NCBI GenBank assembly: GCA_963817915.1
Contig: CAWFQL010000009.1
Location: 308,271-372,270, forward strand
DNA: 64,000 nt
From: an uncultured candidate division Zixibacteria bacterium
Lineage (GTDB): Bacteria > Zixibacteria > MSB-5A5 > UBA10806
Direction of reading: 5' to 3'
Positions 25,395-31,736 of this stretch are shown here, piece after piece; positions within the stretch are counted from its first letter, which is position 1; every line of letters begins with the position of its first letter. The notes below the pieces were generated by a model. That model was given only the letters and a program-made list of their open reading frames with translations, did no database searches and was not told the DNA's origin. The translations under genes and the position numbers were made by a program.

Positions 25395-25511
25395 CTTCCC
25401 TTCTTAAAAATCAACACTCGATCCCTGCAACCACTACTACCACTTCCAAAAACTAATCATAATAATCCATTTTTTATAAATCAACTGATTTATGATAGCA
25501 ATATTTCTCGC

Positions 25512-25578
25512 GCCGTCAGGAATCCTTTCCTGACGGTTCACCGTCGTAAGGTGTCAGGAAGGGATTCCTGACACCGCT
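25512..25578. repeat. REPIN-like doublet, family C
   Basis: CCGTCAGGAA-TCCT-TTCCTGACGG...GGTGTCAGGAA-GGGA-TTCCTGACACC. Confidence 0.85.
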
Positions 25579-25657
25579 ATTAATAATTGTAATTGCACAA
25601 TTATGGTCAATTGGGCATATTTGATTCAAGAGTGGTTGTTTTCGAAAAGATGGCTGA

Positions 25658-26311
25658 ATGAAAGAATGTTATTTTACAAGCGATAATATCGACGAAAAGG
25701 CTTATCAGATGGCTGAAGATGTCGCCGCAAATGGTCGCAAAAGAAAATCGACGTTCTTGAGTCAGAAAGCGGCATTGCTCATTATCGATATGCAAGATTA
25801 TTTTCTGAGCAAGGCTTCGCACGCGTTCATACCAAGTTCACCGGCGATAATCCAAAAGATAATCGACTTGCGAAAAGAGTTTGAGATGACTAAACGGCCG
25901 ACAATCTTTACCCGTCATCTAAATACAACTCGTGACGCGGGAATGATGGGAACTTGGTGGAGCGAAATAATCGAACGCGAAAATCCACTTAGCAGAATAA
26001 CCGCTCTTTTAGATTCCAATGACGGGATTGTTATCGAAAAACCGCAATATGATGCATTTTATAGTACCTCGTTAGAGGCAATTCTTCACGCCAGGAATAT
26101 TAAGCAGTTGGTAATTTGTGGAGTTATTGCGAATTTATGCTGTGAGACCACGGCAAGGGCGGCGTTCGTGCGCGGGTTTGAGGTCTTTTTCGCAATTGAT
26201 GGCACGGCAGCATATAATGCCGATCTTCATCGCGCGACACTTTTGAATCTCTCTCATGGATTCGCGACCAATATTCTAACAGATGATTTGCTGGCAAGGA
26301 TGCGAAAATAA
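25658..26311 (+). CDS. Isochorismatase-family cysteine hydrolase
   Basis: Asp-Lys-Cys triad motifs IIDMQ, EKPQYDAF, ANLCCETTAR. Confidence 0.9.
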   Translation: MKECYFTSDNIDEKAYQMAEDVAANGRKRKSTFLSQKAALLIIDMQDYFLSKASHAFIPSSPAIIQKIIDLRKEFEMTKRPTIFTRHLNTTRDAGMMGTWWSEIIERENPLSRITALLDSNDGIVIEKPQYDAFYSTSLEAILHARNIKQLVICGVIANLCCETTARAAFVRGFEVFFAIDGTAAYNADLHRATLLNLSHGFATNILTDDLLARMRK

Positions 26312-26314
26312 GAT

Positions 26315-27205
26315 ATGAAGCCGGCAGATATCGTCATTATTGGCGCAGGACCTTCGGGAATAGCCGCCGCGATTCAGCTTAAACGTTACGGGCTCAATCT
26401 GATTGTGCTTGAGAAAAATAAGATCGGCGGCCTTCTAAGAAGCGCGAACAAGGTGGAAAATTATCCTGGATTTCCGGAAGGAATTTCGGGTTTGAATTTG
26501 GTTGATTTGCTTGAACAGCATGTTAAGCGATATGACGTTGAAATAATCTTTCATGAGGTGATTGATCTGGATTGGCAAAAGAAGTTTTTTGCTATCAAAT
26601 GCGCCAATGCTGAATACTATTCAAAACTTTTGATTATCGGGACAGGTACGAAGCCAAAAAGGTTTAGGGATATAAATATTTCGAATGAAACGGAGCGAAA
26701 TATTATTTACGATATTACTTCTATCCTAAAAGAAAAAGGGAAACGAATCGCAATTATCGGCGCGGGTGACGCGGCATTCGATTATGCTCTTAATCTGGCA
26801 AAACATAATCAGGTATTCATATTCAATCGCGGTACTGAAATAAAATGCATTCCAATCTTATGGCAAATGGCCAACGAGTCATCAAATGTCGAGTATCACG
26901 AGAATACGAAGATATCAAGTATATCGGCCATAGCGAATGACAGGCTTCGAATCGGAATATCGCGTGAGAGTGAGATATCAACAATGGATTTCGATTATCT
27001 GATTCCTGCTTTGGGACGAGTACCACAGCTCGATTTTATTTCAAGTAATTTGAAAGCGAAACTTATCGAACTTGAACAAGAAGGCTTTTTATATTTTATT
27101 GGTGATGTCAAAAACAATCTCTACAGGCAAACGGCGATTGCGGCCGGTGATGGGATTAAGGCGGCCATGGCGGCCTATTCAAAATTAAGGACAATTCGGG
27201 ATTAG
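26315..27205 (+). CDS. TrxB-fold FAD/NAD(P)H oxidoreductase without CXXC
   Basis: GAGPSG, VENYPGF, GAGDAAFD, IGD...RQTAIAAGDG; the CATC position reads IIYDITSI. Confidence 0.85.
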   Translation: MKPADIVIIGAGPSGIAAAIQLKRYGLNLIVLEKNKIGGLLRSANKVENYPGFPEGISGLNLVDLLEQHVKRYDVEIIFHEVIDLDWQKKFFAIKCANAEYYSKLLIIGTGTKPKRFRDINISNETERNIIYDITSILKEKGKRIAIIGAGDAAFDYALNLAKHNQVFIFNRGTEIKCIPILWQMANESSNVEYHENTKISSISAIANDRLRIGISRESEISTMDFDYLIPALGRVPQLDFISSNLKAKLIELEQEGFLYFIGDVKNNLYRQTAIAAGDGIKAAMAAYSKLRTIRD

Positions 27206-27217
27206 AGGATACACGAA

Positions 27218-28177
27218 ATGCAGATAGTGGCTTCGACAGGAAATAAAAATATCAGTACAGTTTATATCGCTGACCTTGGGCAGGACAAATTTGTCGAGAT
27301 GGTGGAATCATTACAGCCCCCATTGCCTATTGATAAGAAATGGGTGCTGATCGTATCGACCTTATTCGGCTGTCCGGTTAAATGCCCCATGTGTGACGCC
27401 GGCGGGCATTACAAGGGACGATTGACAAAAGATGACATATTCGAACAGATTGATTTTTTGGTTAAAAGCAAATTCCCCGACTGCCATATTCCTGTCGATA
27501 AATTCAAAATCCAATTCGCGCGAATGGGCGAACCGGCATTTAATCAGAATGTAATCGATGTCCTGGAGGAATTGCCACGAAGATATGACGCGCCCGGCCT
27601 GATGCCATCGATATCAACTATCGCGCCCTTTGGGACGGATGATTTCTTCAATAAGCTTTTCGAGGTCAAACAAAAGCATTATGGCAACGGCGGATTCCAA
27701 TTGCAATTCTCGATTCACACGACAGATCTGAAATTGCGAGACAGACTTATTCCAGTACGAAAATGGGACTTTGCGAAAATCTCGCAATACGGCCAAAAGT
27801 TTTACCTTCCTGGCGATAGAAAGATTGCGCTAAATTTCGCATTTGCCAATATTATGCCAATAGAATCATCGATACTCAGAGAATATTTTGATCCGGAGAT
27901 CTTTCTGATAAAGTTGACGCCGTTGAACCCTACTCATACAGCGGTTCAAAACAATCTCTTCGCCGGCCCGCAATCAGCCGCTGAATCATCATATGATGCT
28001 ATCGCAATGAGCCTGCGAGATGCCGGATATGAGACCATTGTGAGTATAGGCGAGATGGAGGAAAATCTGATTGGAAGCAATTGCGGACAATATCTGTTGA
28101 AGCATCTGGAATCGAAAGAGAAAATCGATGAAGGATATACGTATGATGTGGACTCGCCATCAATCATTGTTTCCTGA
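27218..28177 (+). CDS. RlmN/Cfr-like radical SAM protein, short, lacking the resolving Cys
   Basis: C52xxxC56xxC59, MGEP, SIHTTD...RDRLIP, C-terminal SNCGQ (C289). Confidence 0.85.
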   Translation: MQIVASTGNKNISTVYIADLGQDKFVEMVESLQPPLPIDKKWVLIVSTLFGCPVKCPMCDAGGHYKGRLTKDDIFEQIDFLVKSKFPDCHIPVDKFKIQFARMGEPAFNQNVIDVLEELPRRYDAPGLMPSISTIAPFGTDDFFNKLFEVKQKHYGNGGFQLQFSIHTTDLKLRDRLIPVRKWDFAKISQYGQKFYLPGDRKIALNFAFANIMPIESSILREYFDPEIFLIKLTPLNPTHTAVQNNLFAGPQSAAESSYDAIAMSLRDAGYETIVSIGEMEENLIGSNCGQYLLKHLESKEKIDEGYTYDVDSPSIIVS

Positions 28178-28207
28178 CAATATGCGTGTAAGGTGTCAAC
28201 CCATCCT

Positions 28208-28275
28208 GTCATTCCCGCGAATGCGGGAATCTAAACTGAACTACACGCAAAATTCCGCAATAAATGCGGAATGAC
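28208..28275. repeat. REP doublet, family A
   Basis: GTCATTCCCGCGAATGCGGGAATC ... ATTCCGCAATAAATGCGGAATGAC. Confidence 0.85.
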
Positions 28276-28349
28276 AGGTTGAGACTGCGTCATTGTTTTG
28301 GGCGGCTCATTGGAGTTGACCTGAACAACATTCCATAATATTAATCAAT

Positions 28350-28979
28350 ATGAACGAACGACTTTATAAATCCACGAAACGTTTGGGGCTCGCAATCAGC
28401 CATGTCGCCGAGGTGGGCGTCTATCACCCGGAAACATCAAATATTCTCGGCTATATTCGCGATGGCGTACCCGCCGACTTGTTCGAGCCGGATCCCGATT
28501 CGATTTCGCGCATACATGAAGCATTTGGAAAGTATGCGCATGTAAAAGTGCATCCATTCGCCATATACAAAGAAAATACGACTTTAAAACTGTATCGGGC
28601 GGGTGCGTCGACCTTTGCCGCGGACCTGCCGTCTTCCCCTGCTTTAGCTAATGATAGTTATCAGCCAAGTGCGGATGATGCTTTCGAAGCTGAGGCCCGC
28701 CGATTTGATGAATTCGATGACGGCACAATCGATCTCTTGAGTATCGATACCGAAGGCTGCGAATGGTACGTGCTTATGCATCTAAAAAGCCGTCCGCTGG
28801 TTATTTCTGCTGAAATGGGATGGAAAAAATACCAGAATCCGTTTTTAAAAGAGATCAAGGAATGGATGCAATCGAATGGCTATCGCGTCTGGTACAGTGA
28901 TAAATCTGATACTGTCTATGTACATCAGCGGATTCGGATCGGATTTTGGAGAAAGTGGCTAGACCAGCTGGGGTGGTAG
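28350..28979 (+). CDS. FkbM-family SAM-dependent methyltransferase
   Basis: AEVG, LFEPDP, IDLLSIDTEGCEW motifs. Confidence 0.8.
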   Translation: MNERLYKSTKRLGLAISHVAEVGVYHPETSNILGYIRDGVPADLFEPDPDSISRIHEAFGKYAHVKVHPFAIYKENTTLKLYRAGASTFAADLPSSPALANDSYQPSADDAFEAEARRFDEFDDGTIDLLSIDTEGCEWYVLMHLKSRPLVISAEMGWKKYQNPFLKEIKEWMQSNGYRVWYSDKSDTVYVHQRIRIGFWRKWLDQLGW

Positions 28980-29122: not shown

Positions 29123-30373
29123 TTACTTTCTTAATTCCGGATACAGCGGGAATCTTTCGCAGAGGGTGTGGACATCGTTGCGGACATCGGCAATGACATT
29201 ATCGTCATTCAGATTCTTGATGACTTTCGAAATCATGCCCGCGATCTGCTTCATCTCATTTGTGCCCATGCCGCGCGTGGTGACAGCCGGAGTGCCGATT
29301 CTGATACCCGATGTCACGAACGGCTTGGCGGGATCGAATGGGACAGTGTTCTTATTGACAGTGATATCGGCCTTCTCTAATGCCTTTTCGACATCCTTGC
29401 CGGTGATATTCTGCCCGATAAACGATAGCAGCATCAGATGAGTATCAGTACCGCCGGAAACCACATGATAGCCGTCATCGATAAATGACTGCGCCATCGT
29501 TTTGGCATTCTCTAATATTCGCTTTTGATATTCCTTGAATTCCGGCTTTAGTGCTTCCTTGAAGGCGACGGCCTTGGCGGCGATGACATGCATGAGCGGC
29601 CCGCCCTGGATACCGGGCATGACTTCGCGATCGAGGTCCTTGGCATATTTCTCTTTGCACATGATCATGCCGCCGCGCGGCCCGCGGAGCGTCTTGTGGG
29701 TTGTCGTGGTTACGAAATCGGCATAGGGTATCGGCGATGGATGAAGCCCAGTCGCAACCAGCCCCGCGATATGCGCGATATCGACCGCCATGTACGCTCC
29801 GACCGCGTCGCAGACATCGCGGAACGCTTTGAAATCGAGCGTACGCGGATAGGCCGACGCACCTGCCATGATTAGTTTCGGTTTGACTTCTTTGGCGCGT
29901 TTCATCAATTCATCATAATCGATGGTTTCGGTTTCTTTGCTGACCGAATACGGCTCGACCTTGTAAAGCTTGCCGGAGAAATTTATCGGATGGCCATGTG
30001 TCAGATGGCCGCCATGCGAAAGGTTGAGTCCCATTATCGTATCGCCCGGCTGCAGCACAGTAAAATAGACCGCCATATTGGCTTGCGATCCCGAATGCGG
30101 CTGGACATTAACATGCTCGCATCCAAATAGCTCTTTGGCGCGTGCTTTGGCAAGCTCTTCCGCCTGATCGACAAATGTGCATCCGCCGTAATACCGTTTG
30201 CCGGGGTAACCTTCGGCGTATTTGTTAGTCATTACCGAGCCCATAGCCTGCATTACCGGAATCGAGACGAAATTTTCAGACGCGATCAATTCCAGCCCGC
30301 CGTGTTGACGTTTTACCTCGTTGAGCAGGGTCTCGTAAATTTCCGGGTCGAATTTTTTTAACTCATCTAACAT
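29123..30373 (-). CDS. glyA: Serine hydroxymethyltransferase
   Basis: [27 protein letters not shown]. Confidence 0.98.
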
Positions 30374-30816
30374 TTATTATCATCCTCGTATTTTTTAATT
30401 TTGCTGAGACGTCTTTCATGACGTCCCCCCTCAAATTTAGTCTTTACAAAATTATCTAAAATTTCTTTTATCTGCGATTCGGGAGTATATTTGCCGGATA
30501 ACACCAGCACATTGGCATCATTGTGGCTGCGCATGAGTTGCGCCATTTCAGGGCTTAACGCCAGCCCGGCCCGGATGCCTTTGACTTTATTGGCAGTGAT
30601 CGCCATACCGTTGCCGGTCCAGCATATCAGGACACCGGCGTCGGCCTTGCCCGCTGACACTTCTTCCGCGGTTAATAGACCATAATCAGAGTAGTCGGTG
30701 CTTTCATCGGAGAATGTGCCGAAATCCTCGACATCATATCCTTTTTCAAGTAGATATGACTTAATTATATTCTTGAAGGCAAAGCCTTTATGATCGGCGC
30801 CCAGTGCGAATTTCAT
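30367..30816 (-). CDS. rpiB: Ribose-5-phosphate isomerase B
   Basis: [30 protein letters not shown] overlap with ilvE stop. Confidence 0.95.
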
Positions 30817-31736
30817 TTTACGAATGTGAGCCAATGATGTTTGTCGGTTTCGGGCTTTTCGAAGATATCGAAAAATGTCTTCTGCAATTTTGCCGTGATC
30901 GGGCCTCGTTTGCCAATACCGATTGAGATACCATCGATTTTCTTGATTGGTGTAATCTCAGCCGCAGAGCCGGTAAAGAAGACCTCATCGGCGATATAGA
31001 GAGCCTCGCGAGGAATCAATTCCTCGATGACCTTCATGCCCATATCCTCGGCGAGCTTGATAACGGTGTTTCGGGTGATGCCGGGGAGAATCGATGATCC
31101 GAATGGCGGCGTAATGATAGCGTTATCCCTGACAAGAAATATATTTTCGCCTGAGCCCTCGGAGACATGCCCATAAACATCGAGCGCGATCCCCTCGCTG
31201 TATCCATGCGCCCTGGCTTCGAGACGTATCAATTGGCTATTCATATAATTTGCCGATGATTTGGCCATAGCAGGCATGGTGCCGGGAGCGTTGCGACGCC
31301 ATGATGATACGCCGACATCGACGCCAATTTCCAGAGCTTCGGGCCCGAGATATTTCCCCCAGGGCCAGACAGCGATTGAAACGTTTATCGGCACTCCGGT
31401 AGGGTCAACGCCCAGGCTCGAATAGCCGCGATATACTAACGGACGGATATAGCAGGCATCCAATTTGTTTACTTTGATAAGGTCAATTATGGCCTGGTTT
31501 ATTTCATCCTTGGAAAATGGCACTTCGATGCGATATATTTTGCAGGAATTGAACATGCGGTCAGTATGTTCAGCCAAACGGAATATTGCCGGGCCTTTTG
31601 GGGTGGAATAGCACCTCGCGCCCTCGAATATCCCCGAACCATAATGTATAACATGCGATAAAATATGGATTTTGGCATCGTCCCAATTAACGAATTTGCC
31701 GTCCATCCAGATTTTTTCTGTTTTATTAAAAGCCAT
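30813..31736 (-). CDS. ilvE: Branched-chain amino acid aminotransferase
   Basis: HYGSGIFEG, YIRP, EGSGENIF, LPGITR. Confidence 0.95.
   Translation of the reverse strand: MAFNKTEKIWMDGKFVNWDDAKIHILSHVIHYGSGIFEGARCYSTPKGPAIFRLAEHTDRMFNSCKIYRIEVPFSKDEINQAIIDLIKVNKLDACYIRPLVYRGYSSLGVDPTGVPINVSIAVWPWGKYLGPEALEIGVDVGVSSWRRNAPGTMPAMAKSSANYMNSQLIRLEARAHGYSEGIALDVYGHVSEGSGENIFLVRDNAIITPPFGSSILPGITRNTVIKLAEDMGMKVIEELIPREALYIADEVFFTGSAAEITPIKKIDGISIGIGKRGPITAKLQKTFFDIFEKPETDKHHWLTFVK

Follow-up and report, generated by a model that had tools for sequence, protein, structure and literature searches.

A conserved three-gene cassette with an RlmN-like radical SAM protein as a candidate pathway for p-aminobenzoate supply

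Many bacteria possess a full folate pathway without any recognised source of p-aminobenzoate (pABA). The classical route proceeds from chorismate through PabA, PabB and PabC, and the known alternative requires oxygen: the self-sacrificing pABA synthase CADD (NE1434) consumes its own Tyr and Lys (PMC11965152). RlmN and Cfr are RNA methyltransferases and class A radical S-adenosylmethionine (SAM) enzymes. In RlmN, Cys118 deprotonates the enzyme–RNA adduct, and the C118A variant yields no 2-methyladenosine (m2A) (PMC13266988, PMC5130265). Here we describe a cassette of three genes in a 64,000-nt stretch of DNA (the window) from an uncultured Zixibacteria bacterium (assembly GCA_963817915.1, contig CAWFQL010000009.1, positions 308,271 to 372,270 of the forward strand), in which an RlmN-like protein lacking this cysteine is encoded together with a cysteine hydrolase and a flavoprotein. 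The cassette is real, conserved and uncharacterised, and we put the probability that it is a pABA-supply pathway for folate, working without chorismate or oxygen, at roughly two in three. The relevant features of the window are as follows.

25658..26311, + strand: cysteine amidohydrolase of the isochorismatase family, 217 aa (open reading frame (ORF) and Pfam/NCBIfam matches)
26315..27205, + strand: TrxB-fold flavoprotein for flavin adenine dinucleotide (FAD) and NAD(P)H, without CXXC, 296 aa (ORF and TIGR01292 match)
27218..28177, + strand: RlmN-like class A radical SAM protein, 319 aa (ORF and weak RlmN/Cfr match)
26138-26140, + strand: codon of C161 of the hydrolase, a triad residue
27350..27352, + strand: codon of Ile45, by alignment the equivalent of the RlmN Cys118 position
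27371..27394, + strand: CxxxCxxC cluster motif (C52, C56, C59) of the radical SAM protein
27521..27523, + strand: codon of Arg102 of RMGEP, a predicted substrate-binding residue
28082..28084, + strand: codon of Cys289, equivalent to RlmN Cys355, the predicted methyl carrier

The initial annotation had proposed a tightly spaced trio of genes. The ORF calls agree with this, since the three frames share the + strand with gaps of 3 and then 12 nt, and neighbourhood analysis showed the trio to be conserved, and partly fused, in other genomes. Of 7262 candidates, 6482 proved to be relatives of the radical SAM protein, and GTDB is estimated to contain about 1300 stretches that match it. The taxa include Chloroflexota, Zixibacteria, Cloacimonadota, Thermoplasmatota and Thermodesulfobacteriota, all represented by metagenome-assembled genomes (MAGs). 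When only loci with at least 1.9 kb upstream are counted, in sets that have a few genomes in common, the flavoprotein gene is adjacent in 67 of 68 GTDB loci, 40 of 42 metagenome loci and 23 of 23 loci of the window's own phylum; for the hydrolase gene the corresponding counts are 58/68, 31/42 and 11/23. All ten longer homologs of the radical SAM protein are fusions with the flavoprotein, and the hydrolase is fused to the radical SAM protein in five cluster representatives. Apparent long fusions at four loci (L013, L014, L042, L049) were set aside, being mostly start-codon artefacts of ORF calling; that of L013 may be a GDPD read-through. Nitroreductase-family genes were seen in the flanks of 10 loci (L143, L232, L242, L246, L282 and others), and once between the flavoprotein and radical SAM genes. 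No description of the cassette, or of a route from nicotinamide adenine dinucleotide (NAD) to pABA, was found in the literature searched, which was largely without subscription papers and without supplements.

The initial annotation had named no pathway, and the evidence that carries the pABA reading is phylogenetic. In the window's own phylum, all 239 genomes of at least 85% completeness were searched with profiles for the radical SAM protein, PabB and the hydrolase. PabB was called on two matches at E <= 1e-75 or one at <= 1e-104, with counts tallied by hand, and by judgement a fragment in genome G335 was counted as PabB and one in G281 was excluded. The call was verified on DNA in 11 genomes, and lone matches were TrpE in 14 of 15 positive genomes, i.e. 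genomes with the radical SAM gene. This gene is present in 43 of the 239 genomes, and PabB in none of these 43 as against 95 of the 196 without it. By family, PabB was found in 60/81 negatives and 0/5 positives (f3), 7/12 and 0/2 (f4), 13/18 and 0/2 (f5), 9/12 and 0/1 (f7), 1/3 and 0/2 (f8), and 1/16 and 0/11 (f11). A family-stratified exact test gives p = 5e-6 for the mutual exclusion, a value that is overstated by kinship. When only genomes with any TrpE/PabB-type match are considered, PabB occurs in 0 of 15 positives and 95 of 120 negatives. The hydrolase, which is nearly always a single-copy gene, whether cassette-type or stand-alone, complements PabB almost perfectly in its distribution: it was found in 114 genomes, including 42 of the 43 with the radical SAM gene, and PabB occurs in 2 of these 114 compared with 93 of the 125 without hydrolase. 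Altogether 144 of the 239 genomes have no PabB call, and the phylum splits into 93 genomes with PabB only, 112 with hydrolase but no PabB, 2 with both, and a remainder discussed below. Swaps within a genus (G203 versus G187, G306 and G307; G174 versus G164, G169 and G190) argue against lifestyle as the cause of the exclusion. PabB-PabC fusion proteins were seen in family f5 (L187, L196, L208).

A second phylum, that of the genome carrying locus L013, was sampled with 151 genomes, of which 69 negatives were tested. All five genomes with the radical SAM gene have TrpE only (PabB 0/5), whereas 41 of the 69 negatives have two PabB-type matches, and PabB plus PabC were confirmed in all four that were fetched. 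The Fisher test gives p = 0.015, or 0.033 when the seed genome is left out. The 80 genomes from which the GTDB loci come (33 searched with PF00425 and 47 with the PabB profile) likewise yielded no PabB, in a set with no matched background and with completeness not given. A Chloroflexota-wide sample was sparse, the seed genome alone matching among 141, so that the positives there are without a matched background.

In this profile the cassette occurs with FolP and in place of PabB, which is what a pABA supply should do. FolP was found in 44 of 45 cassette-positive genomes and in 32 of 32 negatives tested, and in the window's phylum in all 44 genomes tested; FolB is present in 80 of 80 genomes tested and FolK in four of five. 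The window's own genome has folE, folB, folK and folP, and searches of it for PabB, TrpE, MenF, CADD and chorismate synthase (AroC) found none of them. Chorismate synthase is absent from all five positive genomes tested. At six loci folP lies directly upstream of the hydrolase gene (five in Dehalococcoidia/Chloroflexi, and L277); L273 has a divergent folC-folP pair, L285 a convergent folP, and in G211 folB lies 2.3 kb away. A different view would be that the pterin half of folate is the target, either by C-methylation, a modification known from methanopterin, or by return of a one-carbon unit to dihydropterin. The folP adjacency would suit it, as would the Wood-Ljungdahl gene cluster setting, where DUF3786 precedes the cassette at 19 loci. 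Judging from the FolB and FolK counts, however, the pterin branch is complete, which also led us to reject the cassette as a missing pterin step, and a pterin target leaves both the PabB exclusion and the amidase unexplained; we consider it very improbable. Replacement of thymidylate synthase was rejected as well, as all five positive genomes examined have a ThyX or ThyA-family match, one of them weak. In Anaerolineae-type loci (L029, L032, L033, L037, L041, L043, L045, L237, L256, L281 and others) DUF3786 lies on one side of the cassette and one or two ATPases of CooC/AcsF type on the other. Genes close by were identified by eye as CooS and AcsB, which places the cassette among genes of folate-dependent one-carbon metabolism.

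The radical SAM protein shares with RlmN and Cfr (TIGR00048, TIGR04432; PDB 3rfa, 5hr7, 6fz6, 9p0p) the fold, the CxxxCxxC cluster, a GEP motif, a conserved Glu and the methyl-carrier Cys. Its motifs are C52/C56/C59, RMGEP (R102, E105), SNCGQ (C289) and E27, the last of which, in an alignment to the RlmN of the host, corresponds to a conserved Glu located before the barrel (presumably E105 in E. coli RlmN numbering). The initial annotation had listed the CxxxCxxC, MGEP and C-terminal NCGQ motifs correctly. The differences are substantial. Identity is about 19%, the protein scores 35 bits on TIGR00048 (cut-off 290) and 21 bits on another curated RlmN/Cfr model (cut-off 550), thus failing both, and it has RMGEP where RlmN and Cfr have GMGEP. 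In the alignment to the host protein, Met1 corresponds to residue 66. The AlphaFold model (pLDDT, a per-residue confidence score, 85) has RlmN as its best fold match and covers only residues 80-363 of E. coli RlmN (Z 26.3, root-mean-square deviation 2.9 Å over 266 residues); since model residue 1 matches RlmN residue 80, the N-terminal helical domain of about 79 residues is absent, as had been proposed from the sequence.

At the Cys118 position, I45 aligns with the resolving Cys of the host RlmN, and a profile alignment to Cfr gives the same column. The 190 cellular members have I (83), M (51), L (48), Q (2), C (2), N (2), V (1) and T (1) here. The absence of a resolving Cys that had been postulated therefore holds in 188 of 190, but the Ile itself, which is indeed present in the window, is not a conserved feature. 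Cys289 is kept in 190 of 190, as is RMG[ED]P. Many homologs carry the Joint Genome Institute (JGI) label 23S rRNA C2-methyltransferase, and together with the fold match this would favour an ordinary second RlmN or Cfr that makes m2A or 8-methyladenosine (m8A) in rRNA or tRNA. Such a role is hardly credible for a protein that is far under the family cut-offs, lacks both the N-terminal domain and, nearly always, Cys118, and has dedicated partner genes in a host with a full RlmN (384 bits) on a different contig. The protein likely falls outside RlmN/Cfr, with a mechanism that would resemble that of RlmN up to the methylene radical, and it likely acts in small-molecule chemistry, as the initial annotation had suggested; the loss of the RNA-binding domain and the separate RlmN are in line with that.

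The motifs for FAD and NAD(P)H binding (GAGPSG, GAGDAA, invariant Gly columns) are intact in the flavoprotein, which shares these and its two-domain layout with TrxB and with the TrxB-type ferredoxin-NADP reductases (YumC-like), which likewise lack CXXC. With 161 bits on TIGR01292 (cut-off 343) it stays below the TrxB threshold. In contrast to TrxB it has no CXXC, the consensus at that site being FYEVYP, and it forms a separate clade that is linked to the radical SAM protein, with which it also occurs in fusions. Its only cysteines are C96 and C178, so that the earlier description as a CXXC-free TrxB-fold protein was right. RlmN assays depend on a flavodoxin system (PMC5130265), and a dedicated reductase is therefore the simplest role: we predict that the flavoprotein converts two-electron into one-electron transfer for the radical SAM enzyme. 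An earlier proposal was that a stable Cys289-CH2-substrate adduct is resolved in trans, by the flavoprotein (e.g. through C178) or by the hydrolase. It recalls C118A RlmN, which stays trapped on RNA without forming m2A (PMC5130265), and it fits the existence of flavoprotein fusions and the presence of C178, the sole conserved cysteine, in 64 of 75 homologs. That cysteine is, however, replaced in 11 of the 75 and in several fusion proteins, and in TrxB alignments it lies outside the CXXC site, away from the flavin-adjacent redox centre. The flavoprotein as adduct resolver was thus not borne out, and we regard trans-resolution as quite improbable. A predicted complex of the two proteins scored 0.00 and was used neither for nor against any reading.

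The hydrolase is related to EntB/PhzD, PncA, RutB, BiuH and NicF by its fold and by the position of an Asp-Lys-Cys triad (D44, K128, C161) that is invariant in 56 of 56 homologs. EntB is the closest relative both by sequence and by fold (model pLDDT 95), and W100-W101 and Y131 are common to the EntB/PhzD branch, the Trp, Lys and Tyr of that pocket being shared with EntB. However, C161 is kept in 59 of 59 homologs and the aligned residue of EntB is Gly, which sets the protein apart from the isochorismatase ether hydrolases; its triad fits the cysteine amidohydrolase type (RutB/BiuH/NicF). It is below every NCBIfam cut-off, with 25 bits on the PncA model (cut-off 174). A housekeeping nicotinamidase was ruled out by a separate PncA-like gene in the host (L355, 169 bits on the same model); where that protein has D-W-H, which we take to be its metal-site motif, the hydrolase has T-R-H in a comparison by eye. 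From its residues we predict a p-aminobenzoyl amidase with a pocket for a benzoate-like ring.

Class A enzymes attach one carbon to an sp2 ring carbon, and amidases free an acid from its amide. For pABA to be formed in this way and independently of chorismate, the expected precursor is the carboxamide of a ring with one carbon fewer, and nicotinamide plus CH2 gives C7H8N2O, the formula of 4-aminobenzamide. The cassette and PabB exclude each other in the genomes searched, and we tentatively propose that the cassette makes pABA by converting the nicotinamide ring of NAD(P)+; this has somewhat less than an even chance of being correct. In a first step, modelled on RlmN homology, SAM would methylate Cys289, and a second SAM would provide a 5'-deoxyadenosyl radical that generates a Cys289-S-CH2 radical. 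In a Minisci-type reaction, the pyridinium ring of NAD(P)+, or of nicotinamide mononucleotide, would then take up this radical at C6. The cationic adduct would need no cysteine base to give up its C6 proton, and breakage of the C-S bond would leave a dihydropyridine with an exocyclic methylene, together with a thiyl radical. All that an acid like Cys118 could do would be to quench this intermediate to a dead-end methyl, which would explain the loss of Cys118. In the third step, for which there is chemical precedent, water would open the ring at C2 and the enamine carbon would reclose it (a Kost-Sagitullin switch), so that the former ring nitrogen N1 ends up as an amine in the para position to the carboxamide and 4-aminobenzamide is freed from its N-glycoside. 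The hydrolase would subsequently cleave the amide by means of Cys161 to give pABA for FolP, and the flavoprotein, supplied by NAD(P)H, would deliver two electrons, one at a time, in each turnover. Pyridinium recyclisation was reportedly described in papers of Kost and Sagitullin. Conversion of pyridinium salts to anilines is known chemistry, including the sequence of nucleophile addition, ring opening and ring closure (ANRORC; PMC12322128), and radical addition of class A enzymes to ring carbons of this type has been described as Minisci-like (PMC13266988).

The ring switch would explain both the one-carbon transfer and the presence of an amidase, the absence of Cys118 and the RNA-binding domain, and the independence of oxygen. 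It is thus possible, at less than even odds, that the class A enzyme performs a pyridine-to-benzene skeletal editing, by which the ring of vitamin B3 becomes the pABA of vitamin B9. A rather doubtful variant is that pABA, or a pABA-like amine for FolP, is made from a precursor other than nicotinamide, still by way of a p-aminobenzoyl amide. The profile evidence backs the end product and not the substrate, which leaves room for it. The missing chorismate synthase in the positive genomes tested speaks against it, and among abundant carboxamides of six-membered rings we know of none besides nicotinamide that lacks just the one carbon and has a nitrogen para to the amide carbon.

As compared to the PabA/PabB/PabC route, the cassette would yield the same product and takes the same slot in the genome profile; it has no sequence relation to it, and the positive genomes lack PabB and, as far as tested, chorismate synthase. 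Like CADD (TIGR04305), it would replace PabABC without being orthologous to it, and does not always lie in a cluster with folate genes. It differs from CADD in relying on a [4Fe-4S] radical SAM enzyme, with no oxygen requirement if the pABA reading holds, and a search with TIGR04305 (HDO dimetal helical bundle) gave no match in the three cassette proteins or in the window's own genome. The cassette is found mostly in lineages that we take to be anaerobes. In NosN and NocN, which have a HemN-like fold, the product does not end as a simple methyl. These class C enzymes differ from the cassette enzyme by using a second bound SAM instead of a methyl-cysteine and by acting on ribosomally synthesised and post-translationally modified peptides. 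As is predicted for the cassette enzyme, they move a methylene from SAM onto an sp2 ring carbon with no Cys118 involved (PMC13266988).

The pABA gap would be filled gene for gene by the cassette and the stand-alone hydrolase. If the NAD mechanism is correct, there would be a third, oxygen- and chorismate-free pABA route in about a thousand species, and 4-aminobenzamide would be a shared metabolite that many more species salvage by means of the stand-alone hydrolase. It would also be an enzymatic pyridine-to-aniline ring switch of use in biocatalysis and, to our knowledge, the first small-molecule reaction of the RlmN class. Many database entries for a 23S rRNA methyltransferase would then be misannotated.

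Two clades were seen among relatives in phages. The first (L459-L515; for example L101:5878-6807, L099:5977-6936 and L102:5872-6816) consists of short RlmN-like proteins in which both cysteines are kept and the N-terminal domain is missing; 55 proteins from 57 loci were scored, and all 55 have Cys at the 118 position together with SMGEP. The ANB28 copy lies amid tRNA genes, so these may be phage tRNA methylases. Comparison with RMG[ED]P in the cellular clade indicates that Arg102 marks a clade mostly without Cys118. The second, a large one (L365-L444, L516-L532; L098:5833-6840) and part of 569 viral relatives, has Thr at the Cys118 position, RMGEP and mostly ITCGN. In Moorella phage MTATph1 the gene is split: the radical SAM ORF (L097:5827-6651) ends before the methyl-carrier loop, and a separate 40-aa ORF (L097:6667-6789), directly upstream of thymidylate synthase, bears GAACGQ. 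The Arno18 gene (L100:5821-6696) is without the loop and the next ORF does not provide it; the same loss is seen in four representatives of 274-283 aa. Three distant relatives that lack Cys118 (P0256, P0276, P0234) are fused to a QueT-like transporter, and two of these also to a domain resembling methylthioadenosine/S-adenosylhomocysteine (MTA/SAH) nucleosidase. These fusions point to an imported small-molecule substrate.

Several observations weigh against the pABA reading or its NAD variant. In the own phylum 32 of the 239 genomes have neither PabB nor hydrolase, and 72 of the 114 hydrolase genomes have no radical SAM gene, so that in these 72 the amide must also come from elsewhere, for which salvage is assumed. 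One genome, G181, has CADD above cut-off (L316:1414-2343) in addition to a stand-alone hydrolase, and in the second phylum one of seven hydrolase-only genomes has a second PabB-type match. The data come from MAGs, and related genomes do not count as independent; the exclusion of PabB could be due in part to lifestyle, and in some positive genomes TrpE-TrpG could double as aminodeoxychorismate synthase. Folate genes are missing from the vicinity of most loci, folP occurring in 8 of about 190, and nothing conserved was found among the neighbours of 20 stand-alone hydrolase loci. At locus L250 the radical SAM gene is without a flavoprotein gene and lies in a run with trpE-trpG. The two members with Cys at the resolving position both come from one genus. 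No enzymatic pyridine-to-benzene switch of this kind was found in the literature searched. A hint to NAD, the presence of NAMPT beside phage relatives, was dropped because it failed its control: NAMPT was found at 4 of 80 loci, against 3 of 57 for the clade that retains Cys118, and at none of 160 cellular loci, i.e. no enrichment. Finally, neither flavoprotein nor hydrolase was found near the Thr-type phage proteins (79 proteins, 80 loci).

The latter finding, in a sister clade with the same Cys pattern, fits a further explanation: only the hydrolase would be tied to pABA, by salvage of p-aminobenzoylglutamate or another p-aminobenzoyl amide, or the exclusion would reflect lifestyle, and the radical SAM pair would methylate another small molecule, a cofactor or an RNA base with a non-cysteine base such as E27. 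The stand-alone hydrolases in the 72 genomes, the non-adjacent hydrolase gene in 10 of 68 GTDB loci and the transporter and nucleosidase fusions of distant relatives agree with this as well. Against it, the radical SAM gene never occurs together with PabB (0/43, 0/5 and 0/80), the hydrolase accompanies it in all but one of the 43 genomes, and the two are fused in five cluster representatives. We consider this explanation unlikely, and prefer a pABA supply in which the three proteins act together.

As for the surroundings of the cassette in the window, it is flanked on both sides by hairpin-forming repeats that are unlike each other in sequence.

25502-25585 and 28202-28281: inverted repeats, one with a 33-nt arm pair (two small hairpins) and one with a 14-nt arm pair

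A promoter and terminator scan at the locus gave a signal no better than that of shuffled sequence. Of the first 81 loci clustered, this one alone has the downstream FkbM gene (28350-28979), which was placed outside the cassette. A glyA-rpiB-ilvE run is located at 29123-31736 on the - strand, about 950 bp from the cassette; glyA encodes a folate enzyme, which is a weak connection. The stand-alone hydrolase of locus L334 is also found near glyA, rpiB and ilvE.

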